Below are positions 3 to 58,556 of a stretch of DNA of 64,000 nt, piece by piece. Numbering within the stretch: position 1 is the stretch's first letter; each line of letters opens with the position of its first letter. The position numbers and the translations under genes are program-made. The notes under the pieces were generated by a model, which was given only the letters and a program-made list of their open reading frames with translations, was not told the origin of the DNA and did not search any database. Source of the DNA: a virus (Duplodnaviria; Caudoviricetes); IMG/VR virus record IMGVR_UViG_3300037308_000440, positions 22,415-86,414 of that record. One strand, written 5' to 3'.

Positions 3-446
3 ATTGAACGTGCAGAAAATCTTGTTAAAATACATATGAGATCTCTTGATTCTTTATCAACTGGAAAAGCAATTCGTAGATTGCTTAAAGTTTTTGAAGA
101 ACATGATGTAAATTGGAAAGATTGGTTGAAATTAAAAATAGCTGATAAAAGAGCAAATCTAGCAAAAGAACAATATCAAAGAGAACATATCAAAAAGATT
201 TGCTTGAAGATTCATAATGCAAAGAAGTCTCCTGTAAGAGCTTTCTCTGTTAAAGATTTAAAAATTTCAGGTTATGATGTTATGGAAACTTTGAATATCA
301 AACCTGGAAATTTAGTTGGTGCTATTCTTAAAATATTATTCGATAGAGTTCTCGATGAACCTGAACTAAATGATCGTGATAGACTAATAGATATTTTAAG
401 GAGTGAAGAGTGGGTGAAACAGGCAGTAGAAATAAGGAACGCATAA
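3..446 (+). CDS. tRNA nucleotidyltransferase (CCA-adding)/poly(A) polymerase family, C-terminal part (5'-truncated)
   Basis: Frame open from window edge; C-terminal motif VKDLKISGYDVMETLNIKPGNLVGAILKILFDRVLDEPELN typical of bacterial CCA enzyme tail domain; next to tRNA cluster. Confidence 0.7.
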   Translation: MERAENLVKIHMRSLDSLSTGKAIRRLLKVFEEHDVNWKDWLKLKIADKRANLAKEQYQREHIKKICLKIHNAKKSPVRAFSVKDLKISGYDVMETLNIKPGNLVGAILKILFDRVLDEPELNDRDRLIDILRSEEWVKQAVEIRNA

Positions 447-829
447 GCTATCTTCATTTCGATGTCTACATGGATAAATTAGTCGAAATGATTAAGAATA
501 GTGAAAGGTTTCCTAATCTAAAATGTATTTATGGAATTCCTAGAGGTGGTTGGCCAATTGCAGTTCATTTAGCTCACCATTTAGAACTAGAACTAATTGA
601 ATCTTGTTCTTTAGATTCATTATTTAGAAAAATACCTTCTGAATTATTGATTGTAGATGATATTGCAGATACAGGAAAAACTTTAAAAAAATATGACTGG
701 TTTGCTTCTGCCACTTTATACTATAAACGAAGATCAGTAATCAAACCAACTTTTTATGTAAAAGAAACAGAAAACTGGATTGTATTTCCTTGGGAAAGAT
801 TAGATGAAGTTCCAAATAGACCAGAATAG
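410..829 (+). CDS. type I phosphoribosyltransferase (Gpt/Hpt-like)
   Basis: YGIPRGG, PRPP-binding LIVDDIADTGKT, terminal WIVFPWE as in xanthine/guanine PRTases. Confidence 0.85.
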   Translation: MGETGSRNKERISYLHFDVYMDKLVEMIKNSERFPNLKCIYGIPRGGWPIAVHLAHHLELELIESCSLDSLFRKIPSELLIVDDIADTGKTLKKYDWFASATLYYKRRSVIKPTFYVKETENWIVFPWERLDEVPNRPE

Positions 830-7685: not shown

Positions 7686-8132
7686 TTATTCTTCTCCTCT
7701 TCGTTTATTTATTTCAGTACTTGAATACGTTTTGATATATCCGCCAACTCCAAACATCATTTTAATGCCATACTTCAAACAAATATCACGCTCAGGAATA
7801 TCGTGTTCTGTTTTTCTGTCACCTCCGTTTGCAAAGATAAGATTACAGTCTTTATATTCCTCTCCAAGTTTCTCTATAGTTAAACAACACGATGGATCTT
7901 CATCAACTGCAAACACTACCTTATCTACATATTTGATTGCCCCAACAACAGAATATCGTTCAATTTCTCCCATTATAATTTTACCTTTTTTCAATAACTG
8001 TTGTTTGTCATTATTTATAATTACAATAAGTTCATCCCCTAATTTTTTTGCTTCGTATAAATGATTAACATGCCCTGCATGAACTGGATTAAAATGGCCG
8101 CTAACAATCACTACAGTTTTTTTAGTATTCAT
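7686..8132 (-). CDS. cytidylyl/adenylyltransferase (RfaE-II/TagD-like)
   Basis: VSGHFNPVHAGH HIGH-type motif, FANGGDR. Confidence 0.9.
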   Translation of the reverse strand: MNTKKTVVIVSGHFNPVHAGHVNHLYEAKKLGDELIVIINNDKQQLLKKGKIIMGEIERYSVVGAIKYVDKVVFAVDEDPSCCLTIEKLGEEYKDCNLIFANGGDRKTEHDIPERDICLKYGIKMMFGVGGYIKTYSSTEINKRRGEE

Positions 8133-8943: not shown

Positions 8944-9162
8944 TTACCTCAAATTTCCTCTTGGTATTACTACCTTCACATTATCAATAATAACAAGAAC
9001 ATTTTTTGGCCCTTTTCCCTTTGCAACAAAATAAACAAAAGCTCTTTTTCCATGATATTGCATTTCATTCTGAACTGATTTTCTATAATGAACTATAGCA
9101 ATATCACCAAGCTTTAAATATCTATTTGAGAAAGTCAACTCTTGAGAACCACCCTCTCGCAA
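8944..9162 (-). CDS. hypothetical protein (SH3/KOW-like beta pattern)
   Basis: LKLGDIAIV..KNVLVIIDNVKVVIP. Confidence 0.55.
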   Translation of the reverse strand: MREGGSQELTFSNRYLKLGDIAIVHYRKSVQNEMQYHGKRAFVYFVAKGKGPKNVLVIIDNVKVVIPRGNLR

Positions 9163-9700
9163 ATTTTTCTTGGTTAGGAGATTTAGTCATATATTCAAGA
9201 TAATGATTTGCTTGTAAAATATTCAAAATTTTATAAAGAACTTTTTCATCCCCCATATTCATAATAATATCCAAAGCTCCTAAAGTCAATTTTCCAATCT
9301 TTCCATCATCAACTAGATCATCATATAATATAGAATTTTTATTCAAATAATTTAAGGCTCGTTGAAGGAACTTTGCAGCTCTAGTTACACCCATATTAAC
9401 ACCAGTATCAAACATTTCATTAGCAATATTTTGACTAACAAAATTATCTAAAAGATTTACATCCCAAAAATTAACTTTATAGAAATTTTTAACTGAATCT
9501 TGAAGTTCAGCATTATTTTTTAAATCTTCTTCAAAAGTATCGCTACCTTTTGATGCATCAATTATAGACCATCCAGACCAGTTTGGGTGATAATTCCTAG
9601 CTACTCCTTTGTACGTTTCTCCACCAACATCATCTGGGTCATTTGCATAACCACCTTCATGCCCCATTGTTTTCTGGTATGCTTGGTAAAAGTCCGCCAT
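9122..9700 (-). CDS. GH108 endolysin with peptidoglycan-binding domain
   Basis: HEGGYANDPDDVGGETYKGV catalytic motif; MFDTGVNMG..LQRALN..DGKIG..KFARGW. Confidence 0.93.
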   Translation of the reverse strand: MADFYQAYQKTMGHEGGYANDPDDVGGETYKGVARNYHPNWSGWSIIDASKGSDTFEEDLKNNAELQDSVKNFYKVNFWDVNLLDNFVSQNIANEMFDTGVNMGVTRAAKFLQRALNYLNKNSILYDDLVDDGKIGKLTLGALDIIMNMGDEKVLYKILNILQANHYLEYMTKSPNQEKFARGWFSRVDFLK

Positions 9701-9899
9701 TTTCTTCTTCCTCCTCTGTACTACCGGCCGCCTCATATTTTCTAAGAGCATTAGCTCTAACTAAATTATTTAATACTTCACCAAAAGGTTTTCCAATCAT
9801 CCATTTATATAATGGACAAGTTTTATAAACTTTATCATCTCTTATTATAACACCACCACACCCATATTTAGTGTCCAAGAAATACAATTGATCAGACAT
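9657..9899 (-). CDS. hypothetical protein
   Basis: YGCGGVII..CPLYKWMIGK. Confidence 0.65.
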   Translation of the reverse strand: MSDQLYFLDTKYGCGGVIIRDDKVYKTCPLYKWMIGKPFGEVLNNLVRANALRKYEAAGSTEEEEENGGLLPSIPENNGA

Positions 9900-10299
9900 C
9901 TACCCAACGCTTCCTTTCAAAATCCCAGTAGCATCTAAAAGAATCACTATCTGAATGAGTAGTAGATGCTTCTATAAAATCACAACTATCTCCAACACTA
10001 CAGAATCTATGTCTCATACCTGGTTTAACTCTAAAAGAATCTCCTTCTAATAAAGAGAATCTTCTAATTATTCCATCAATTTCCATTTCAACTCTTAATT
10101 CACCCGAGACAATATAAAATGTTTCGTCTTTAGTTTTATGATAATGAAACTTTCCTTCCGAAGACCATTTTCCATCTTCACAATGTAAAAGTTTCATACA
10201 ATATTTTTCATTATTTTCTAACCATTGTTCAAATCCCCAAGTTTTCATATAAATATTTGGGTGAGGATTTGTCTGTTTCACATCACTTGAATCTATCAT
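9892..10299 (-). CDS. cupin (sugar isomerase/epimerase-like)
   Basis: KTWGFEQW..FHYHKTKDETFYIVSG..PGMRHRF..EASTTH. Confidence 0.88.
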   Translation of the reverse strand: MIDSSDVKQTNPHPNIYMKTWGFEQWLENNEKYCMKLLHCEDGKWSSEGKFHYHKTKDETFYIVSGELRVEMEIDGIIRRFSLLEGDSFRVKPGMRHRFCSVGDSCDFIEASTTHSDSDSFRCYWDFERKRWVDV

Positions 10300-10643
10300 G
10301 GGTATACCTCATTCTTTCTATCGTATAATTTTCTTATTTCAAAAAGTTGTTGTTTAATAAAATCATCAGGGTGTATAGACAAGTCATCAATATATACGTC
10401 GCCACCAGGTTTAGAATGAAGTTCATGATAAGGAACTCCCCAATCATTCAATTGCTTAATAGTAAAATCTCTTCTATCAGTTTTTGAATACATTCCTCTA
10501 GCCGTATAAATAATAATTTTATTTCCTTCCTCTACTAAATGCCTAATAATATCAACCATCATTTTATATGGTTTTGCTAAATGATAATCCCCATCAGTTG
10601 TCTTTGTACAAATTGTTCCATCTAAATCAAAAACATAAACCAT
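10296..10643 (-). CDS. HAD-superfamily phosphatase (capsule/heptose-pathway type)
   Basis: VFDLDGTIC, YTARG, KPGGDVYIDD. Confidence 0.88.
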   Translation of the reverse strand: MVYVFDLDGTICTKTTDGDYHLAKPYKMMVDIIRHLVEEGNKIIIYTARGMYSKTDRRDFTIKQLNDWGVPYHELHSKPGGDVYIDDLSIHPDDFIKQQLFEIRKLYDRKNEVYP

Positions 10644-11130: not shown

Positions 11131-11682
11131 TTAAATATGTGGTAAAGTATTGATAATTGCAAACAATTCTTGCTTGCATGATGCATGAACCATAAAGTCC
11201 CCATAAAGACTTGAAATAAAACATTTATCAACATACCAAAGAATAGCAACTCCTTCTACACAACCTTTCTTAACTTGATCATAATGTTTCTTAATTTCAT
11301 CACTCATAAATCCACAATAGTTTCTTGCACTTTGAATCTTTCCGTCAACGAAACCATTTTTAACAGCTTCTTCATGAATCTTATAAACCACTTGATCTAG
11401 ATCATTTAAATTTGCATCACAGATCAATGAAATAAAAAGAGGCCACCCTTCCATTTGATATTTTCTAACAATCAAAGGACTCCAATTTTTATCAAGCAAT
11501 CTTGTTGCTGTTGTGCTATCATCTCTAGTCATTCCATCATTCGCTTCATTGCCCATGTTTACACTTTCGTTCATTTCTGCTTCTCCTATGATTTTTCTAC
11601 TCATTTCATTGACTCCTCTAAACGATTCCCATTTTGGCGGATATATTGGTGAATGAATACAAACACTACTTTTGTTTGCCAT
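11131..11682 (-). CDS. hypothetical protein
   Basis: 183-aa ORF. Confidence 0.7.
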   Translation of the reverse strand: MANKSSVCIHSPIYPPKWESFRGVNEMSRKIIGEAEMNESVNMGNEANDGMTRDDSTTATRLLDKNWSPLIVRKYQMEGWPLFISLICDANLNDLDQVVYKIHEEAVKNGFVDGKIQSARNYCGFMSDEIKKHYDQVKKGCVEGVAILWYVDKCFISSLYGDFMVHASCKQELFAIINTLPHI

Positions 11683-11860
11683 AAAATTTTTTCATTTCCT
11701 GCAAAAACATTTCAACATCTCTTTCCTTATCTTTATTTATATAGAATTTTGTTCTATTTTCATCAAGTTTAATCCAAATTGCATCAGGGAATCTGCCCAT
11801 AATATTTTGTTCTTCAAGATAACTTTCTGCCATAATTTCAATAACTTGTTTAACTTTCAT
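11666..11860 (-). CDS. hypothetical protein
   Basis: GGAGG RBS before ATG at 11860. Confidence 0.6.
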   Translation of the reverse strand: MKVKQVIEIMAESYLEEQNIMGRFPDAIWIKLDENRTKFYINKDKERDVEMFLQEMKKFYGKQK

Positions 11861-12509
11861 TAGAACCTCCCATTTGTAGCCATGTTTCCAAATACATCTT
11901 ATGAGACATTTGATAATAATGCCCATATTTTGCTACTCTAGTTCTTGGTCTATACATATCCAAAAAGTCAACTACATCAGCTTTAAATTCTGTTTGATGA
12001 CTTTCAGCTAATGCTTTAATAAACACTTCAGGATGTATAACTGCTGAACCCATACATACATAATGAAATGGTCTCCTAAAACGAGATACTAATTCTTTAT
12101 AACCAAAATATGAACATGTAGCTAAATCTCTCCAATTATGTTGATCGCCAAACATTTGCCAAAAATCACAAGCAAGACCAGTAAATAATAAAACACTAAT
12201 TCCTTTATTCTCACATAATCTAGTTATTGATCCTTCCGGAGCTGGATATTTAATTAACCATTCTAACACCATTCTACTTGCTGGCGCATTACATTGATAA
12301 CTTTCCAATAAATCATCTAATGGATATGAAGTTCTCCCTCCACAATCATCCATTGTTAATTGAAAATCATGAAAGATAGACCCACCATTATGAATCAACA
12401 TTTCAACTTTATTTTGTTCTATAACTTTTCGTAATTCTTCTCTTGCAGTTTTTATTACTGCTCCACCAATTGCAAGAATTCTTTTATCGAACTGGTAGGT
12501 GGTCTTCAT
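11850..12509 (-). CDS. deoxyhypusine-synthase-like fold protein (GSU2086-like)
   Basis: GGAVIK..HNGGSIFHDFQ..MGSAVIHPEVFIKALA motifs. Confidence 0.7.
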   Translation of the reverse strand: MKTTYQFDKRILAIGGAVIKTAREELRKVIEQNKVEMLIHNGGSIFHDFQLTMDDCGGRTSYPLDDLLESYQCNAPASRMVLEWLIKYPAPEGSITRLCENKGISVLLFTGLACDFWQMFGDQHNWRDLATCSYFGYKELVSRFRRPFHYVCMGSAVIHPEVFIKALAESHQTEFKADVVDFLDMYRPRTRVAKYGHYYQMSHKMYLETWLQMGGSNES

Positions 12510-12984
12510 TATATAGTTTCTTTCTTATTTCTTTTATTGAATTTAGATCTTCGCTATTAACTAAATCCATAGAATGTGGTTGTCTATCATCATCACCAAG
12601 TCCTTTAACTTGATAACAGAATAATGCAATAGCATTCCATGCTGCATGTGCTAAATGATGCAACCCACTTTCAGGATCATATTTTTCTCCACGCATCCAT
12701 TTAAATATATGTCTCAACATTGGCCCAATAACTTTTCTCCACTGCATCCCTTTCCACCAATTATCTGGATCATATTTATGACATCCATAAGTATAAACTA
12801 ATACAATCTCATGTAATGCATAGGGAGGAATTAAATCATATCTTGGTTTGCCACTATCAAATCTAGCAGCTACTGCTTTACCAAGTTGTGATTCCTGTTC
12901 TTTATTTCTAGTAAAAATATTTACAGGAATAGGATCTGGTTGAGAAAGATCTATTAAATCTTCATCTTTTTCAAAGTTTGCCAT
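12484..12984 (-). CDS. dATP/dGTP diphosphohydrolase (DUF5664)
   Basis: RFDSGKPRYDLIP..YGCHKYDPDNWWKG..RH..DPESGLHHLAHAAWN. Confidence 0.9.
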   Translation of the reverse strand: MANFEKDEDLIDLSQPDPIPVNIFTRNKEQESQLGKAVAARFDSGKPRYDLIPPYALHEIVLVYTYGCHKYDPDNWWKGMQWRKVIGPMLRHIFKWMRGEKYDPESGLHHLAHAAWNAIALFCYQVKGLGDDDRQPHSMDLVNSEDLNSIKEIRKKLYNEDHLPVR

Positions 12985-12997
12985 TATTGTTTCCTTT

Positions 12998-13591
12998 CTA
13001 TAGTTCTATTCCACAATATTCACAAACACCAACTTGGTCTTTGTGATCGCACAAATGAGAATATATTCTAAATTTCAAATCACTATTTTGTAACAGATAT
13101 CTGCCAGATACATCATAAAATTTGAATTCTGTAATAACAATTTCTTTAATACCTGCATTAATAATCTCAACCAAACAAGGAGTGCATGGAACACCACAAT
13201 CCATATAAAGAATACATCTTTTTGTTTTAATACCCATTCTAGCTGCATTAATCAATGCATTTCTTTCAGCATGACCTGCAACACACCATTGAAGTCCTTG
13301 TCCTGATTTATAACCCATAACATATCTAGGACATCTTTTTTGATTATTTTTATCATCTGGATTAATATGTTTCGATTCCAAATAAGCTCTCATTTCTGGA
13401 TCAATAACATATCTTTCTCCACAATGAGGAACTCCTCTAGGAGGGCCATTATATCCTTCACAAATAATTGTCTTATCTTTAACTAATAAACAACCAATTT
13501 GTCTTGATAAGCAACTACTGTTCTTACCAACAGCAGAAGCAATATTAAAAAAATATTTATCCCATTTCAATAAAGATTCATTTTTATTCAT
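12998..13591 (-). CDS. dCMP deaminase (ComEB-like)
   Basis: SCLSRQIG..GYNG..HAERNA..PCTPC. Confidence 0.92.
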   Translation of the reverse strand: MNKNESLLKWDKYFFNIASAVGKNSSCLSRQIGCLLVKDKTIICEGYNGPPRGVPHCGERYVIDPEMRAYLESKHINPDDKNNQKRCPRYVMGYKSGQGLQWCVAGHAERNALINAARMGIKTKRCILYMDCGVPCTPCLVEIINAGIKEIVITEFKFYDVSGRYLLQNSDLKFRIYSHLCDHKDQVGVCEYCGIEL

Positions 13592-13929
13592 CTGTTATCA
13601 CCACTCCCATGTATTTTTCCTTCTTTAAGACGCTTCAAAAGTTTTTGAAGATTGCCGATAGCCACATCATTAAGGTTAATATCAAAAAAGCTAGCATATC
13701 TAGTAAGATACCAAAGAACGTCCCCGAGCTCTTTTGTAATTTCTGTTTTGAAAACTTCGTCGGGAACTCCTTCATGATCTCTAAATAATTTTTTAGTCTT
13801 CTCAAATACTTCACCCATCTCTCCAACTAAACCATACATATAATAATTGATGGGATGTCCAAGCAATCGTTGAGCATCCCCTGATCTATCTGTTACTGCA
13901 ATTTTTTTCTGATATTCATTAAATGTCAT
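13588..13929 (-). CDS. MazG-like nucleotide pyrophosphohydrolase
   Basis: GLVGEMGEVFEK..ELGDVLWY..NLQKL..R. Confidence 0.9.
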   Translation of the reverse strand: MTFNEYQKKIAVTDRSGDAQRLLGHPINYYMYGLVGEMGEVFEKTKKLFRDHEGVPDEVFKTEITKELGDVLWYLTRYASFFDINLNDVAIGNLQKLLKRLKEGKIHGSGDNR

Positions 13930-14534
13930 AAAGAACCATAACCACTGAAAATTTCGTCAATTTCAACTTCAGCTTGTTTTAATAAAGTCATAATATTTTC
14001 TTTTGATAAACCACATAGAGGAGCTTCTAATTTAATTGGTTTTGGTCCATTAATTTGTAATACCTTATTAACACGACCAAACCATTCTTGTTTACAATCT
14101 GGAAATTCATTTAAGTAATCTGACCAGTCTGCTCCATGCCAAATAGTATCAATATCTAGATCTTCAGCAATAGAAGCTGCAATTGAAATAAACATTAGAT
14201 TTCTAGAAGGAACATGCATTGTATGTACGCCTTCAAATCTTCCCTTGGCCCCGCTGCCGGTTAACCCACTAGTAATTCCCAAATTGTGCAACATTACAAT
14301 ACGATAAGGAAGGCATTGTTTCTTTATATATCTTTGTGCATACTCTAATTCTTCTCTATGTAACTGTTGATAATCAATTAAAACAAATAAGGGGGTTTTT
14401 CCCATATCTCGTGCCAATAGATGCAATAGAACACTATCAGCACCACCACTAAATAAAATAACTAAATCTGGTTTTACACTAGTCACTTCTTCATCACAAC
14501 TACACTCTACACCACATTCACCACAAGGACTCAT
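13926..14534 (-). CDS. queC: QueC-like 7-cyano-7-deazaguanine synthase, atypical Zn site
   Basis: SGGADS PP-loop, DYQQLH.EE, VPSRNLMF, FPDC, APL..LSK; lacks C-terminal Cys cluster but has N-terminal PCGECGVECSC. Confidence 0.8.
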   Translation of the reverse strand: MSPCGECGVECSCDEEVTSVKPDLVILFSGGADSVLLHLLARDMGKTPLFVLIDYQQLHREELEYAQRYIKKQCLPYRIVMLHNLGITSGLTGSGAKGRFEGVHTMHVPSRNLMFISIAASIAEDLDIDTIWHGADWSDYLNEFPDCKQEWFGRVNKVLQINGPKPIKLEAPLCGLSKENIMTLLKQAEVEIDEIFSGYGSL

Positions 14535-14555
14535 TCTAAAAGTCTCCTTTCAAAT

Positions 14556-14572
14556 TTATATTTTGTTCCAAA
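14556..14572 (-). promoter_or_regulatory. phage motif A
   Basis: TTTGGAACAAAATATAA upstream of AAAGGAGA RBS of queC operon. Confidence 0.55.
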
Positions 14573-14673: not shown

Positions 14674-14973
14674 ATGCCCAAGCAGGCGAAGCGGCCTACC
14701 CGCCGCGAGAAGATCGAGAAAACTAAAGAAAATGTAGTTCAACTCAAACCGGTCGAACAGACCAAGCAGGAGGAAGTTCAAATGCCCGAAGTTAAAGAGA
14801 ACACCGAAGCCCAGAAGACGGAGCCCGAGTCCAATCCCGGTTTCTTCAGCCGCCACAAATGGTTGGTGACAGGAACGGTGGCAACCCTCGCCATCATCGG
14901 CGGCATCGCATACGCCCTTCTGAGCGGCGACAGCGAATCCAGCGACAGCACCACCTCCGGCGACCAGGTGTAA
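14674..14973 (+). CDS. GC-rich small protein with C-terminal TM helix
   Basis: AAGGAGG RBS; charged N-terminus, WLVTGTVATLAIIGGIAYALL. Confidence 0.8.
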   Translation: MPKQAKRPTRREKIEKTKENVVQLKPVEQTKQEEVQMPEVKENTEAQKTEPESNPGFFSRHKWLVTGTVATLAIIGGIAYALLSGDSESSDSTTSGDQV

Positions 14974-15583: not shown

Positions 15584-15624
15584 AAAAAATAGGGAGCCTT
15601 CTTATCGGGCCACCCCTATTTTTT
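15584..15624. terminator. bidirectional terminator
   Basis: AAAAAATAGGG..CCCTATTTTTT between convergent genes. Confidence 0.75.
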
Positions 15625-16660
15625 CCCATAATTCAATATTTTTTTTACAAGTATTTTCAAATGAAAGTTCATTTTGAATTGCAACTTCAACTTCCTTTTT
15701 TAAAGTATCATAATTAAATAATGCAAGTTTTATTTTTTCTTCTATATTTTTTTGGTTAACTTCTACAACTCCTTTTTGTTTATAATATTTCAATAATCTT
15801 GTTTCTTCATTGATAATCAAAGGAGTTCCACTCATTAATATTTCAGTTGATACTCTTGGGCATCCATCTTGTAAATTACTTAAATTCAAACCGAATTTAC
15901 TTCTATTTAAAAACATATTTAGTTCTGTTCTAGTTACTTTTCCAGTAAAGTGAATATTTTTAATTTTCTTTACTTCACACATTTTTTTGGCAACATCTTC
16001 TCTATTACCACAATGAACTATTTTCAAATCTCTCAATCCTACACTATCAGCTATAGTATTTAAGAATAATTCTTGCCCTTTATATCTGATTTGTTCAAAG
16101 TTGCAAGGCCAACATATATCCCATTCTTTATAGAACATTTCATTATTTATTTGATGAAAAATAGAAGGAGATGCAGTCTTATAAAATGGAATATTATTAT
16201 ATTTACTAATTGGAAGAAAATCTCTTTCATCTTCCATTAAATAATAATCGTACACCCCTCCCCATTGACTAGTAATTCTTCTACCTGCTCCTAAATATAA
16301 TTTTAATCCAAAATAACCAGGACGTTCTCTTGTAACATTATCATATTCTTTAAAACCGCCTCTAAAAAATGAAATATCTGGAGATTCATAATCAATACAC
16401 TGAATAAAATTCGTTACCCATCTTTGAATATATTTCTTTCCATTAACATCAAAAACAATGTCATTTAATGGGATTGAAGATAGTCTCCAAATTGTTACTT
16501 CATTAAAATAGTCATTTTCTAATAACCACAAAGGAAGTAACATATAAAAATCATGACACCCCTCTTTAAAATTCTTTAAATCATGATAGAATGGATCATG
16601 ATAATATTCTAAAGTTTTTAAGTTTGATCTAAAGAGCCAAAATCTTCGCATATCATTCAA
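15602..16660 (-). CDS. GT-B glycosyltransferase (GT4-like)
   Basis: IHFTGKVTRTELNMFLNRSKFGLNLS..DGCPRVSTEILMSGTPLI. Confidence 0.8.
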   Translation of the reverse strand: MNDMRRFWLFRSNLKTLEYYHDPFYHDLKNFKEGCHDFYMLLPLWLLENDYFNEVTIWRLSSIPLNDIVFDVNGKKYIQRWVTNFIQCIDYESPDISFFRGGFKEYDNVTRERPGYFGLKLYLGAGRRITSQWGGVYDYYLMEDERDFLPISKYNNIPFYKTASPSIFHQINNEMFYKEWDICWPCNFEQIRYKGQELFLNTIADSVGLRDLKIVHCGNREDVAKKMCEVKKIKNIHFTGKVTRTELNMFLNRSKFGLNLSNLQDGCPRVSTEILMSGTPLIINEETRLLKYYKQKGVVEVNQKNIEEKIKLALFNYDTLKKEVEVAIQNELSFENTCKKNIELWEKIGVAR

Positions 16661-17512: not shown

Positions 17513-17689
17513 TTATCTCTCCTCTTTACAAATTTTTAATTCTACTTTATCTTTACATGGAGCGTTTTTATAAACTACTCTTTTCTTTTTCTTACAGTAG
17601 AGCCCGATAAAAGTTCTGCAGGATTTTGATCCATCTTGAATTTTATCGGGCCATTCTGCATATATACATTTAAGATCACAAAATTCCAT
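17513..17689 (-). CDS. 58-aa Cys-rich protein (not in track)
   Basis: MEFCDLKCIYAEWPD..SCRTFIGLYCKKKKRVVYKNAPC; GAGG RBS. Confidence 0.65.
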   Translation of the reverse strand: MEFCDLKCIYAEWPDKIQDGSKSCRTFIGLYCKKKKRVVYKNAPCKDKVELKICKEER

Positions 17690-18660
17690 TATCTTATAAC
17701 TCGTCCTCTCTTAATGTATGACTTTAATTTTTCTGTAGCAGATTTTACTTTAACTATATTTGGGGTTTGTTCTTTTCTAGCAACCTTTTGTAAATTCATA
17801 TCTTTACACACCCAAGCATCTAACATATGATTATCAATATAATTATAACTAATATAACCATATCCTTTTTCACCCCAAGATTGAGACCAACTATTTTTAA
17901 ACTTAATCATTTTTCTTGAGTCATCATACCCAACTGCACAAATCGCATGGCCACCATAAATTTGACCAGAATTTTTAGGATCAGCTACAACTCCATTTGA
18001 ACCAACATTGAATATTTCTTCAAAACATAATATACCAATGGGAATAGGACCATAATTTGCTAATGCAGCTTTAAGTTCTAAACCAGTTGTGATTCTCCAA
18101 TATGATGAAATTTTTAACCACTTTGCAATCCTAGCTGCCATCTTTGATGGTTTGCCAATTGTCGTTGCACTATAAGGCCATTCTTTTTCAAATGGAACTC
18201 CCTGATGTTGCAAAATTTTCATCGCATAACGAATTGAAGTTCCTTCTTCATTTGGCCAAGGATCAATTTTCTTACAATTGTAATATACCCATTGTTCAGA
18301 TAAATCTTTAACTAACTTTGTATCCATAGCAGGTTTCTTTTTTGCTGATACAATTTCTAAACCATATTCTTTTATTTCTTGCCATTCTTTAACAGCTACA
18401 GTTGCAAATGCAACACAGCTTCCCAATTGTCCTTGATCTTTAACAGCAGACATATTATTTGAATAATCAATAGCAGTTGGTAATGTCAACATTAGACTTT
18501 CCATTTGAGTCTTTGTTGTTACCGGCATTGTAGCTTTAAATAAAAAATCTCTTTCATCTTGAGGATCTTTCTTATAACCCATTATACTATTTTTATATGG
18601 AGATTCAACTGCTTTTAATAACTCCAAATTTGGTTTTACTTCTAAAATAACATTAGACAT
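17689..18660 (-). CDS. papain-like cysteine protease (C1A)
   Basis: KDQGQLGSCVAFA, GGHAICAVGY, KNSWSQSWGEKGY: Q/C/H/N residues intact. Confidence 0.93.
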   Translation of the reverse strand: MSNVILEVKPNLELLKAVESPYKNSIMGYKKDPQDERDFLFKATMPVTTKTQMESLMLTLPTAIDYSNNMSAVKDQGQLGSCVAFATVAVKEWQEIKEYGLEIVSAKKKPAMDTKLVKDLSEQWVYYNCKKIDPWPNEEGTSIRYAMKILQHQGVPFEKEWPYSATTIGKPSKMAARIAKWLKISSYWRITTGLELKAALANYGPIPIGILCFEEIFNVGSNGVVADPKNSGQIYGGHAICAVGYDDSRKMIKFKNSWSQSWGEKGYGYISYNYIDNHMLDAWVCKDMNLQKVARKEQTPNIVKVKSATEKLKSYIKRGRVIR

Positions 18661-18663
18661 ATT

Positions 18664-19110
18664 TTAATCCTCCAATTGTCTTAAATAAATCTCTACTAAA
18701 TTTTTCTTCATATAGTTTTCAATTACTTTAATATCATTAATATCTTTAGGACGTTTCATACATTGTTTCCATTCTAAAACATCCTGTAATGATTGAAAAT
18801 GAAACCCATTAACAACTTTAGATCTTTTAAGATGATCTTCAACTTTATCTTTAACACACACAAATCTATGATCTGCTTCTATCAAACCATCCTTTGTTTC
18901 CAGCATTTTTCCATTCGGAGAAAATCTAGAATCTTTAAGCATGTTATCATAAACTTTTTTTGTTACCCATAAATCAATATCATTATTTTCTTTAAGTCCA
19001 TAAAGGGCCATTGTTCCTGACCCTACTATAAGCATTTCATTTAATGGGTAACCTAGTTTTTTAAGTTTATTTATATGTTTTACATTTTTAATATTCATTA
19101 ATACTCCCAT
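18664..19110 (-). CDS. minimal nucleotidyltransferase-fold protein
   Basis: IVGSGTMALYG..NDIDLWV..RPKDINDI; C-terminal VEIYLRQLED tag. Confidence 0.65.
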   Translation of the reverse strand: MGVLMNIKNVKHINKLKKLGYPLNEMLIVGSGTMALYGLKENNDIDLWVTKKVYDNMLKDSRFSPNGKMLETKDGLIEADHRFVCVKDKVEDHLKRSKVVNGFHFQSLQDVLEWKQCMKRPKDINDIKVIENYMKKNLVEIYLRQLED

Positions 19111-20114
19111 TCAGGAATCTGCTCTAATCTAACATCATATTTATTTACTTCTTTATCTAATCTTAATCTTTCAAATGATGGGTGTGAAAATGTTATAGAT
19201 TTATGCATTCCTTTATGTTCATATTTATTTCCTTCAAATGTAAGTAAAGTAGTTGGAGTAATTCTATATCTAAAAAACTTAACTTCTATAACTAATTTTG
19301 GTTTAACACATATTTCACCATCTTTTTTATACAAAGCGTTTTCATTTAAATAGTTATAAAAATAGATTCTTTTCTCTTGTGTAAATCCAGTTCCAATTTT
19401 TGATGAAGTCCTATATAATCCATTTCTATCTAGAAATGCAGTTGTTAAATATGAAACTTGCCCTTTCTTCCAAGCAGGGAGCCCCTCTTTTCCACCACCT
19501 GTTACTACTAAATCAACTGTTCCTGTGAATTTAACCTTATAATTTTTTCCGTTAATTTCTCTAGCGACAACTCCATCAAAACCAGTTTGATTTGAAACTA
19601 AACTATACAACAATCTAAAATCATCAATCCCGCCTTGTATTGTCTTTAATGTTCGTATATGTTCAGACATATTTTTGAAATTCTTTTGAATAAAAGCGGA
19701 TGCCTTTTTGAAATCATAAGAGTTATCATTAATAGAAACAATATCATAAGGATAATGATATACTAAAGGTTTATTTTGTTCTAGATAAGATTTTTTAATA
19801 ATACTTTGTGCATCATTAAATGGCAAGATAGTATTATTTTTGACGGCTACCATCTCACCAGGAATTAATGCTTGTTTAATATCATTTTTTTCAAAGAAAG
19901 TTTTATATTCATTCAAAACAGGCAATTCATCAAAGTAATGTCCTGTAGTAGATTGAAACTTTAAACTATGTCTATCATAAATTAATAATCCCAACATACT
20001 ATCAATCTTTTCAATAAAAATTCCTGATGCAGTCGGGTATTCAGTTACAAATTCTTCATATGATACTTGTTGTAAATTCAGTTTCTTCTTCCATTCTAAA
20101 GCGTAGTTTATCAT
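19098..20114 (-). CDS. ATP-dependent DNA ligase (LigD/LigC ligase + OB domain), divergent
   Basis: EKIDS (KxDG-like), PGEMV, YPYDIV, DGVV, YKVK, IGTGFT, KPKLVIEVKF, HPSFERLRLDK. Confidence 0.85.
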   Translation of the reverse strand: MINYALEWKKKLNLQQVSYEEFVTEYPTASGIFIEKIDSMLGLLIYDRHSLKFQSTTGHYFDELPVLNEYKTFFEKNDIKQALIPGEMVAVKNNTILPFNDAQSIIKKSYLEQNKPLVYHYPYDIVSINDNSYDFKKASAFIQKNFKNMSEHIRTLKTIQGGIDDFRLLYSLVSNQTGFDGVVAREINGKNYKVKFTGTVDLVVTGGGKEGLPAWKKGQVSYLTTAFLDRNGLYRTSSKIGTGFTQEKRIYFYNYLNENALYKKDGEICVKPKLVIEVKFFRYRITPTTLLTFEGNKYEHKGMHKSITFSHPSFERLRLDKEVNKYDVRLEQIPEWEY

Positions 20115-57689: not shown

Positions 57690-58556
57690 ATGAATTTTAA
57701 ACCAACAGAAACTGTTTTTGAATTAGCGAACAATTTTATTAACAATTCACATTATGTTAAAATGAACTATGATAAAATTACTTTACTTGCAGAAGAAATG
57801 AAAAAACAGAATTTTAAGATACCTTTAACTGCTCCAAGAGATTTAAATCTAGAAATAATTAGAGATATTTTAAAGAATTCTATTAATTATTGTTACTGGT
57901 ATGGAAGACATGATATTAGACCAAACGAATCATGTGCAAGCAAATTAGGCAATATTGTTGATGCATGTTTTGAAGATAAAAACTATGAGAACTCAATTGA
58001 GTTATCATCAATGTTTACAAAATTTTTATGTAAAATTACAGAGGAAAGATTTCCTCTTATAGAAGAAAGATCAAAACACTTAAAACAAATACTTCCATAT
58101 GTAAAATCTATTTCAGATAAGATTATAAAAAATGAAAGTTTAAAACAAAGTTTTTGGGAAGTCATATGTATTTCTGAAAGTTATGGTTCAGATTTATTTT
58201 TGAAACGTGCATGTCTTTTATTTATTGAACTTTATAGAAAATATGAATATTTTAGAGACCTGTACAAAGATGAGCTGAAAAACTTTCCTGTCCCTGCTGA
58301 TTATCAAGTCCCTAAAATTCTAGAACACTTCAGTTGTATAATATATTCTAAAGACCTCAAGAGATCAATCGAAGATCATCAACTTATTTCTAAACACTCA
58401 ATTCAAGAATGTGAAATTAGATCCGCAACTGTTTTGGCGTGTAAGAAATTATGTGATCTTACTGGTTGGACTATAGCTGAGGTAGATTGGTGGTTATGGT
58501 CACAAAGAGATTCTGTAACCACTCCATTCCATTTAACAATCACTACTGATTACTAA
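57690..58556 (+). CDS. qng1: queuosine-5'-phosphate N-glycosylase (Qng1/C9orf64/DUF2419 family)
   Basis: SINYCYW, FPLIEER, FLKRA, PADYQVPKILEH..IYS.DL, ECEIR, VDWWLW, terminal PFH....Y, colinear with recalled Qng1 motifs. Confidence 0.87.
   Translation: MNFKPTETVFELANNFINNSHYVKMNYDKITLLAEEMKKQNFKIPLTAPRDLNLEIIRDILKNSINYCYWYGRHDIRPNESCASKLGNIVDACFEDKNYENSIELSSMFTKFLCKITEERFPLIEERSKHLKQILPYVKSISDKIIKNESLKQSFWEVICISESYGSDLFLKRACLLFIELYRKYEYFRDLYKDELKNFPVPADYQVPKILEHFSCIIYSKDLKRSIEDHQLISKHSIQECEIRSATVLACKKLCDLTGWTIAEVDWWLWSQRDSVTTPFHLTITTDY

Follow-up and report, generated by a model that had tools for sequence, protein, structure and literature searches.

Does a compact phage operon headed by a QueC homologue signal DNA in which guanine gives way to a 7-deazaguanine, and by which route would the unusual base get there? 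Phage 7-deazaguanine DNA is a main way to evade restriction and CRISPR; eight derivatives and four DpdA subfamilies are known so far. The question is posed by IMG/VR record IMGVR_UViG_3300037308_000440, an 86,414-bp viral contig (bases 22415 to 86414, 64,000 nt, are hereafter the window; positions are counted from its first base). On the minus strand of the window a seven-gene operon runs from a QueC-like protein without a zinc motif to a small T-fold protein, here called X. An earlier note had taken four of these genes as a sign of a 7-deazaguanine-modified genome and had suggested that base salvage might stand in for the DpdA route. In our reading, which we hold with moderate confidence, the QueC–X operon marks an undescribed pathway variant that replaces guanine by 7-deazaguanine, most likely in the phage DNA, and the remaining genes lie off the contig. 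The operon and its upstream motif comprise the following features.

14555–14569, minus strand: GGAACAAAATATAAA, a promoter-like motif ahead of the operon, with the ribosome-binding site AAAGGAGA after it
13926–14534, minus strand: QueC-like PP-loop ATPase, zinc-less, 202 amino acids (aa); PF06508, 1e-30
13588–13929, minus strand: MazG-type NTP pyrophosphohydrolase, 113 aa; PF03819, 1e-8; phrog_229, 1e-25
12998–13591, minus strand: dCMP deaminase, 197 aa, with HAE and PCxxC motifs; PF00383 (dCMP_cyt_deam_1), 6e-18; phrog_174, 6e-32
12484–12984, minus strand: DUF5664 dNTP pyrophosphohydrolase, 166 aa; PF18909 (dGTP_diPhyd_N), 1e-29; phrog_801, 1e-41
11850–12509, minus strand: deoxyhypusine-synthase-like (DHS-like) Rossmann protein, 219 aa; Atlas structure with a TM score of 0.85 to DHS-family clusters
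11666–11926, minus strand: small open reading frame (ORF), 86 aa or shorter; homologues upstream of X in loci L025, L036 and L080
11131–11682, minus strand: protein X, T-fold, 183 aa; conserved core 11131–11574

The QueC-like protein and its partner X

The first four genes sit exactly where the earlier note had put them, as minus-strand ORFs whose identities are confirmed by Pfam and PHROG matches. They are tightly coupled, with a 4-nt overlap, a second 4-nt overlap and a 13-nt gap at successive junctions, and just 5′ of the first lie a Shine-Dalgarno sequence and an exact copy, at 14555–14569 (−), of the recurrent motif RGAACAAAATATAAA. This motif is probably the ‘motif A’ under which the note had placed the four genes. 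It has 28 matches in the window at up to three mismatches (13.8 expected; 0 of 100 shuffles reached 28), several of them upstream of gene starts. The four genes therefore stand as described, but not the end of the operon at 12484: three further genes (11850–12509, 11666–11926 and 11131–11682) carry it down to 11131, the first of them overlapping the DUF5664 gene by 26 nt. The small ORF at 11666–11926 is kept just 5′ of X in the closest relatives.

The QueC-like protein belongs to a family with more than 280 homologues at 55–90% identity, and its PF06508 match spans positions 3–184 of the 210 in the hidden Markov model (HMM). Canonical QueC motifs were defined as in PMC13082051. The SGGADS PP-loop (S29-G-G-A-D-S34) is invariant among 21 family members, and YxQxHxxE (Y55, Q57, H59, E62) and VPSRN (V108, P109, R111, N112) are likewise invariant in the family. 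So is F144-P-D-C147, which takes the place of the canonical YPDC; the Y131F mutant of E. coli QueC retains partial activity (PMC13082051). The C(x)8CxxCxxC zinc motif is absent from the protein, the sole invariant cysteine of the family being C147. Alignments to solved QueC structures (E 1e-15 to 1e-17) stop at around residues 175–186, and the C-terminus reads FSGYGSL (family consensus FSGYGDL), with an invariant SGYG tail. The window protein also has an N-terminal CGECGVECSC. A relocated zinc site there was rejected as a family feature, the cysteine cluster being seen only in the nearest homologues (above about 80% identity).

Some QueC-family enzymes, those of type IV CBASS (cyclic-oligonucleotide-based antiphage signalling system) and of QatABCD, attach the base to a protein instead of making preQ0, and sets of QueC-like, tRNA-guanine transglycosylase-like (TGT-like) and nucleoside 2-deoxyribosyltransferase-like (NDT-like) genes are found in defence cassettes. 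A protein-tagging role is unlikely here because the QueC-like protein scores 107 bits with the Pfam profile of biosynthetic QueC, against 32.7 bits with the PADLOC profile of CBASS QueC (Cap9-type) and 17.7 bits with QatC. The canonical substrate-pocket motifs are retained, and the relatives described below carry FolE, QueD, QueE and DpdA, with no Gly-tipped partner seen. We regard protein deazaguanylation of the Cap9/QatC kind as very improbable.

Protein X has no match in Pfam, PHROG or PADLOC, and an Atlas search returned nothing. Its more than 430 homologues share 65–88% identity across a 145-residue core. When 1.84 billion representative proteins were scanned in full with a HMMER profile, 105 members only were found and no bridge to any known family, and there was no tblastn match among 50,697 GenBank phage records. 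The AlphaFold2 (AF2) model of X (predicted local distance difference test, pLDDT, 84) has the topology β-β-α-α-β-β-α, that of a T-fold. It matches GTP cyclohydrolase I (VIA Z 11.8 and 10.1), QueF-L (9.1) and QueF (7.7), and all the structural matches are enzymes that bind purines or pterins. QueF and QueF-L are T-fold enzymes acting on preQ0, and DpdL is a QueD-like T-fold protein, the proposed decarboxylase of 7-carboxy-7-deazaguanine (CDG). X as a QueF homologue was rejected at the sequence level, the hhalign probability to a phage QueF being 0.1%.

The relatives of the window consist of 63 X-encoding IMG/VR loci and 48 whole records, 17 of small phages and 31 of jumbo phages. A scan of IMG/VR using a single QueC protein gave zero matches, and an alignment-based scan was required instead. 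In 55 of the 63 loci a QueC gene is encoded on the strand of X, no more than 10 kb upstream of it, and 45 of the 48 whole records have a QueC gene; two natural proteins, P0283 and P0274, are QueC–X fusions. Canonical QueF was found in none of the 48 records, every QueF profile match being a cross-match on FolE. In lineages G014 and G038 it is a full-length canonical QueC, not the zinc-less form, that is paired with X. Because of this pairing the zinc-less QueC is probably isofunctional with the canonical enzyme, and X is suggested to act on its product. Two other roles for X were rejected: that of the missing zinc domain of QueC, in view of its different fold and of its pairing with full-length QueC as well, and that of a FolE substitute, both X and FolE being encoded in the small phages.

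Relatives and a probable transglycosylase

The contig is 28% complete by CheckV, implying an uncultured phage of roughly 300 kb, and the window belongs to the jumbo group. Its closest relatives are G019 (71% complete) and G043 (79% complete), the nearest being G019, a 223-kb jumbo contig with an X of 82% identity. A DNA-level search of GenBank phages gave no match. What the analysis shows are gene identities, folds, synteny, co-occurrence and fusions.

The small-phage relatives have genomes of about 60–73 kb, and three of the records are at least 93% complete. Their QueC–X pair sits in a conserved block, DnaB – QueD – QueE – unknown – FolE – radical SAM – (methyltransferase) – QueC – X – deacetylase-like – glycosyltransferase-like – DpdA – clamp – DNA polymerase. 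In the complete 66-kb phage G003 the order is QueD, QueE, FolE, radical SAM, methyltransferase, QueC, X, deacetylase-like, glycosyltransferase-like, DpdA. DpdA is found in 17 of 17 small-phage records (phrog_887, E 1e-40 to 1e-53) and is of the Queuovirinae (DpdA1) kind. The Pfam TGT profile gives false negatives for such genes. Even at E ≤ 1 it missed both these DpdA1-like genes and the 465-aa TGT-like genes of the jumbo phages, and detection needed PHROG 887, a family profile and structure. The small phages have no NDT, DUF5664, MazG or dCMP deaminase gene.

Two genes lie 3′ of X in 45–50 of the 63 loci, in G003 at L005:7359–8761; one encodes a deacetylase-like protein of 156 aa with a weak PIG-L match, the other a glycosyltransferase-like protein of 318 aa (GT318). 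Both proteins are 40–48% identical between small and jumbo phages. That these two genes follow X in most relatives suggests a sugar on the final base; both are missing from the 86 kb of the window's contig.

FolE was found in 0 of the 31 jumbo records. Every jumbo record of at least 58% completeness carries QueD; GT318 is found in 25 of 31, including all relatives of that completeness. A gene for a TGT/DpdA-like protein of about 465 aa is present in 22 jumbo records, among them G027 (277 kb, complete) and 9 of 9 with a completeness of 58% or more. The AF2 model of this protein (pLDDT 88) is a TGT-type barrel. Its top Foldseek match is the DNA preQ0 insertase DpdA (7ui4), and it aligns with tRNA-guanine transglycosylases at VIA Z 17–18 over 300–330 residues. 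The motifs DSGGFQ, HxLGG and YDSS align with the same motifs of KVP40-type DpdA2. There was no tblastn match to the protein in GenBank phages, and a PDB sequence search was also empty. In G019 the gene lies among genes for a QueE-like radical SAM protein, a ThyA-like protein, DNA polB and DnaB, none of which is in the window's contig.

We note that the TGT-like gene of G019 is also adjoined by a gene for ribosomal protein S21 (L085:4857–5246), and that the family B DNA polymerase next to it (L085:654–3878) has an N-terminal domain of the uracil-DNA-glycosylase superfamily. The ThyA-like gene beside it (L085:5537–6340; PF00303, 9e-10) is a divergent thymidylate-synthase-like gene. It may encode a pyrimidine hydroxymethylase; if so, a second base modification could draw on the dCMP deaminase.

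A 7-deazaguanine modification is well supported, because QueC–X sits in FolE–QueD–QueE–DpdA clusters in small phages and together with QueD, a QueE-like protein and a TGT/DpdA-fold enzyme in jumbo phages. From this comparison, the QueC of the window most likely belongs to a 7-deazaguanine pathway whose last enzyme is a transglycosylase. The modified genome proposed by the earlier note thus gains strong comparative support. Its suggestion of salvage in place of the DpdA route finds no support in that form, given the TGT/DpdA-like gene in all nine of the well-covered jumbo relatives. The note had also seen no folE, queD, queE, dpdA or purZ. This holds over the 86-kb contig, in which TGT, FolE, PTPS, radical SAM and PurZ (PF00709) had no match. 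The gap, including that of the TGT/DpdA-like gene, is best explained by incompleteness: since the contig holds only about 28% of the phage, the absence of queD, queE and dpdA from the window proves nothing. A Z-genome reading was set aside, PurZ not having been found in the contig.

The transglycosylase might serve tRNA instead of DNA. The phage would then make or salvage preQ0 or queuine for queuosine in phage and host tRNAs with GUN anticodons, and the relatives' TGT-like protein would be a tRNA transglycosylase. His-GUG, Asp-GUC and Asn-GUU are among the tRNAs of the contig, about 20 in all, which it carries along with a tmRNA, a CCA-adding enzyme domain, RlaP, a PTH2-like protein and a Qng1-like gene; the DSGGFQ motif of the TGT-like protein is identical to that of bacterial TGT, and its VIA Z is highest to tRNA TGTs. 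However, in small phages the QueC–X pair is accompanied by DpdA1-type genes that adjoin DNA polymerase, and the jumbo TGT-like gene keeps company with DNA polB, DnaB and ThyA-like genes. The DNA enzyme DpdA is its top Foldseek match, the CxCxxC zinc motif of TGT is not among its invariant residues, and Qng1 occurs in 5 of the 48 records only. We find a tRNA-centred pathway distinctly unlikely.

Genes of the nucleotide pool

The jumbo gene order is glycosyltransferase-like – QueC – (MazG) – dCMP deaminase – (DUF5664) – X. Between QueC and X, dCMP deaminase is found in 17 of the 63 loci, DUF5664 in 11 and MazG in 4. The DUF5664 profile match of the window reaches 102.7 bits against a curated cut-off of 27; a PDB sequence search with the protein gave nothing. 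QueC, X, NDT-like proteins and DUF5664 are chained together by fusions. Besides the QueC–X proteins, DUF5664 is fused to an NDT-like domain in G017, and NDT–X fusions are seen in G024, G025, G027, G028 and four database proteins. In 19 jumbo records, the four with NDT–X fusions among them, a related NDT-like gene is located in the QueC–X interval, mostly immediately ahead of X, and a purine phosphoribosyltransferase (PRTase) gene comes directly after QueC in G018 and G026. To judge from these families, the QueC–X slot is a recurrent site for enzymes that transfer purine bases to sugar phosphates. Two further genes of the window, both named in the earlier note and both real, may bear on this step.

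57690–58556, plus strand: Qng1-like queuosine-nucleotide glycosylase; PF10343, 1e-15
410–829, plus strand: short purine PRTase-like protein; PF00156, 2e-8; nearest solved structures the archaeal purine PRTases 4z1o and 1vdm

The five records with a Qng1-like gene (G000, G015, G019, G020 and G043) are all without an NDT-like gene. Qng1 would seem to be accessory and clade-specific, and the complementary distribution of the two, though suggestive, probably reflects a single evolutionary event. No NDT-like gene was found in the window contig by a custom HMM and Pfam, nor in G019 or G043. The PRTase of the window is 10 kb away and not conserved in G019, and those of G018 and G026 are longer than and different from it; its link to the pathway is weak.

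In PurZ0 Z-genome phages, DUF5664 or DutZ makes dAMP, and the NDT-like DmtZ moves its deoxyribose phosphate to 2-aminoadenine (PMC12884076). A similar nucleotide-level branch is hinted at by analogy, because sister lineages carry DUF5664–NDT, NDT–X and QueC–X fusions or a PRTase beside QueC. Taken as the whole explanation, the modification would be pre-replicative: DUF5664 and MazG would turn dGTP into dGMP, an NDT-like enzyme would put deazaguanine on the sugar phosphate, and the modified dNTP would be polymerised. In the clade of the window, Qng1 with the PRTase and ribonucleotide reductase would act in place of the NDT-like enzyme. Such a route would be in keeping with the DUF5664–NDT and NDT–X fusions, the NDT-like gene in the QueC–X interval of 19 jumbo records, the PRTase 3′ of QueC in G018 and G026, the complementary Qng1 and NDT-like distributions and the DutZ/DmtZ precedent. 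Yet the NDT-like gene is missing from the contig and from both closest relatives, every well-covered relative retains the TGT/DpdA-like enzyme, and the small phages pair QueC–X with DpdA and have neither NDT nor DUF5664. The NDT-like protein may moreover be a hydrolase, and all known deazaguanine DNA is held to be made post-replication (PMC10516641). We think a nucleotide-level route unlikely; if true, it would be the first for deazaguanines, and its product may be a sugar-bearing deazapurine.

In sister lineages the salvage idea of the earlier note thus has genuine, if indirect, backing. For the window genome the case is poorer: no NDT-like gene was found in the contig, the PRTase is distant and not conserved in G019, and the characterised DUF5664 prefers dATP. 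A functional tie of DUF5664 to the pathway, and the existence of a base-to-nucleotide step, gain independent support from the fusions and neighbourhoods of the sister lineages. That DUF5664 depletes dATP and dGTP is right in kind, but the sole enzyme whose kinetics have been measured favours dATP over dGTP by a factor of ten and also accepts dUTP (PMC12884076). Neither MazG nor dCMP deaminase is diagnostic. Taken together, the earlier interpretation is partly supported.

In a genome of 30% GC the presence of MazG and dCMP deaminase is readily accounted for by the conversion of dCTP to dCMP, then dUMP and then dTMP. With DUF5664 they might merely rebalance or sanitise dNTPs and have no specific link to QueC. 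The GC content of the genome is indeed 25–38%, DUF5664 occurs in canonical-DNA phages too (PMC12884076), MazG and dCMP deaminase occupy this position in just 4 and 17 of the 63 loci, and the small phages have none of the three genes. Chance proximity does not sit well, however, with the DUF5664–NDT, NDT–X and QueC–X fusions, nor with the repeated insertion of base-to-nucleotide enzymes exactly in the QueC–X interval, and we consider it quite unlikely. A coincidental operon, protein deazaguanylation and a Z-genome are all less likely explanations.

We return to the pathway variant that we favour, in which a transglycosylase places the base. The zinc-less QueC keeps the catalytic motifs for acting on CDG and, together with X, would yield a preQ0-type 7-deazaguanine base and probably modify it further. 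As in the relatives, genes for QueD, QueE, the glycosyltransferase-like protein and, among DNA-replication genes, the 465-aa TGT/DpdA-fold transglycosylase would lie off the contig, and this transglycosylase would most likely put the new base in the place of guanine in phage DNA. In the jumbo lineage the QueC–X interval has gained dCMP deaminase as well as DUF5664 and MazG (dNTP to dNMP), all of which would shape the nucleotide pool; DUF5664 may also feed a nucleotide-level base-exchange branch, as the sister-phage fusions suggest. Substrates, product, DNA target and the presence of the missing genes in the window genome are what we infer in this scheme. Several points count against it. QueD, QueE, TGT/DpdA-like, GT318 and NDT-like genes are all absent from the 86 kb, and their presence in the window genome is extrapolated from relatives. 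The substrate of the TGT-like enzyme could be tRNA. Unmodified AT-rich phages commonly have MazG and dCMP deaminase, MazG stands at this position in 4 loci only, and the characterised DUF5664 prefers dATP (PMC12884076). Finally, the tight four-gene arrangement is specific to the window genome, G019 having about 7 kb between dCMP deaminase and DUF5664.

Neighbouring genes and known systems

One gene upstream of the operon is kept in jumbo relatives, and it is possible that it belongs to the module.

15602–16660, minus strand: glycosyltransferase-like protein, 352 aa; weak PF13524, 5e-5; homologue upstream of QueC in 20 of the 63 loci

The 219-aa DHS-like protein of the operon has no Pfam or PHROG match and no homologue in the 63 related loci. 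A pyruvoyl-dependent arginine decarboxylase (PF01862, 2e-25) is encoded elsewhere on the contig, at L001:7966–8547 (+), and the two proteins together hint at a phage polyamine metabolism, an amine from which may be joined to the base. Genes for cytidylyltransferase-like, cupin (sugar-isomerase-like) and haloacid-dehalogenase (HAD) phosphatase proteins lie close together at 7686–8132, 9892–10299 and 10296–10643, all on the minus strand; the HAD phosphatase carries the PHROG label ‘phosphoheptose isomerase’. The cluster looks like a nucleotide-sugar (heptose-like) pathway adjoining the operon, near a glycosyltransferase island. The flanks of the module, again on the minus strand, hold a papain-family cysteine protease (17689–18660), an ATP-dependent DNA ligase (19098–20114) and a GH108 lysozyme with a peptidoglycan-binding domain (9122–9751). 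A 99-aa ORF at 14674–14973 (+), divergent from the operon promoter region, is locally GC-rich in an otherwise AT-rich genome and encodes one hydrophobic segment. The tmRNA lies at L001:2980–3340 and has the tag AADDYNTELALAA; one tRNA of the contig has a CUA (amber) anticodon.

Phage deazaguanine modification itself is already known (PMC6884629, PMC10516641). Neither the literature searched nor GenBank phages yielded the zinc-less QueC, the X family, the conserved glycosyltransferase-like/deacetylase-like pair, the 465-aa TGT/DpdA-like family or the fusions to DUF5664 and NDT-like domains. The operon is a pointer to a branch of these systems that is widespread, uncultured and equipped with at least three uncharacterised parts, the zinc-less QueC, the T-fold family and the TGT/DpdA-like family. 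Fusions tie the new parts to DUF5664 and deoxyribosyltransferase-like enzymes, and so pose the question whether deazaguanine enters only after replication or, like 2-aminoadenine, via the nucleotide pool.

Compared with canonical QueC (preQ0 synthase; PDB 3bl5, 2pg3), the QueC-like protein shares SGGxDS, YxQxHxxE and VPxRN but ends before the C(x)8CxxCxxC zinc motif that holds the essential Tyr189; it has FPDC for YPDC and, in addition, the new invariant C-terminal SGYG motif. X resembles QueF, QueF-L and DpdL in being a small T-fold protein from a deazaguanine gene cluster. Unlike them, it has other invariant residues and GTP cyclohydrolase I as its best structural match, with no detectable sequence similarity to the three.

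The phage 7-deazaguanine systems known so far combine FolE, QueD, QueE and QueC with one of DpdA1–4 (Hutinet 2019, PMC6884629; Cui/Hutinet 2023, PMC10516641). The window shares with them its QueC-family enzyme, and its relatives hold QueD, QueE, (FolE) and a TGT/DpdA-family enzyme adjoining replication genes; in phage phiST, too, a MazG-like neighbour is noted. The present systems differ in a QueC without the zinc motif and its obligate new T-fold partner X, in the relatives' conserved glycosyltransferase-like and deacetylase-like genes, in the absence of FolE from jumbo relatives, in the DUF5664, NDT-like or PRTase genes inserted in the module, and in a 465-aa TGT-like protein unmatched in GenBank phages. 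From the DUF5664/DutZ and DmtZ route to dZTP in PurZ0 phages (PMC12884076) they are set apart by a base that is 7-deazaguanine and not 2-aminoadenine, by a contig without PurZ and by a window without an NDT-like gene. What they have in common with that route is DUF5664 together with an NDT-like enzyme, fused in one relative, beside genes for an unusual purine.

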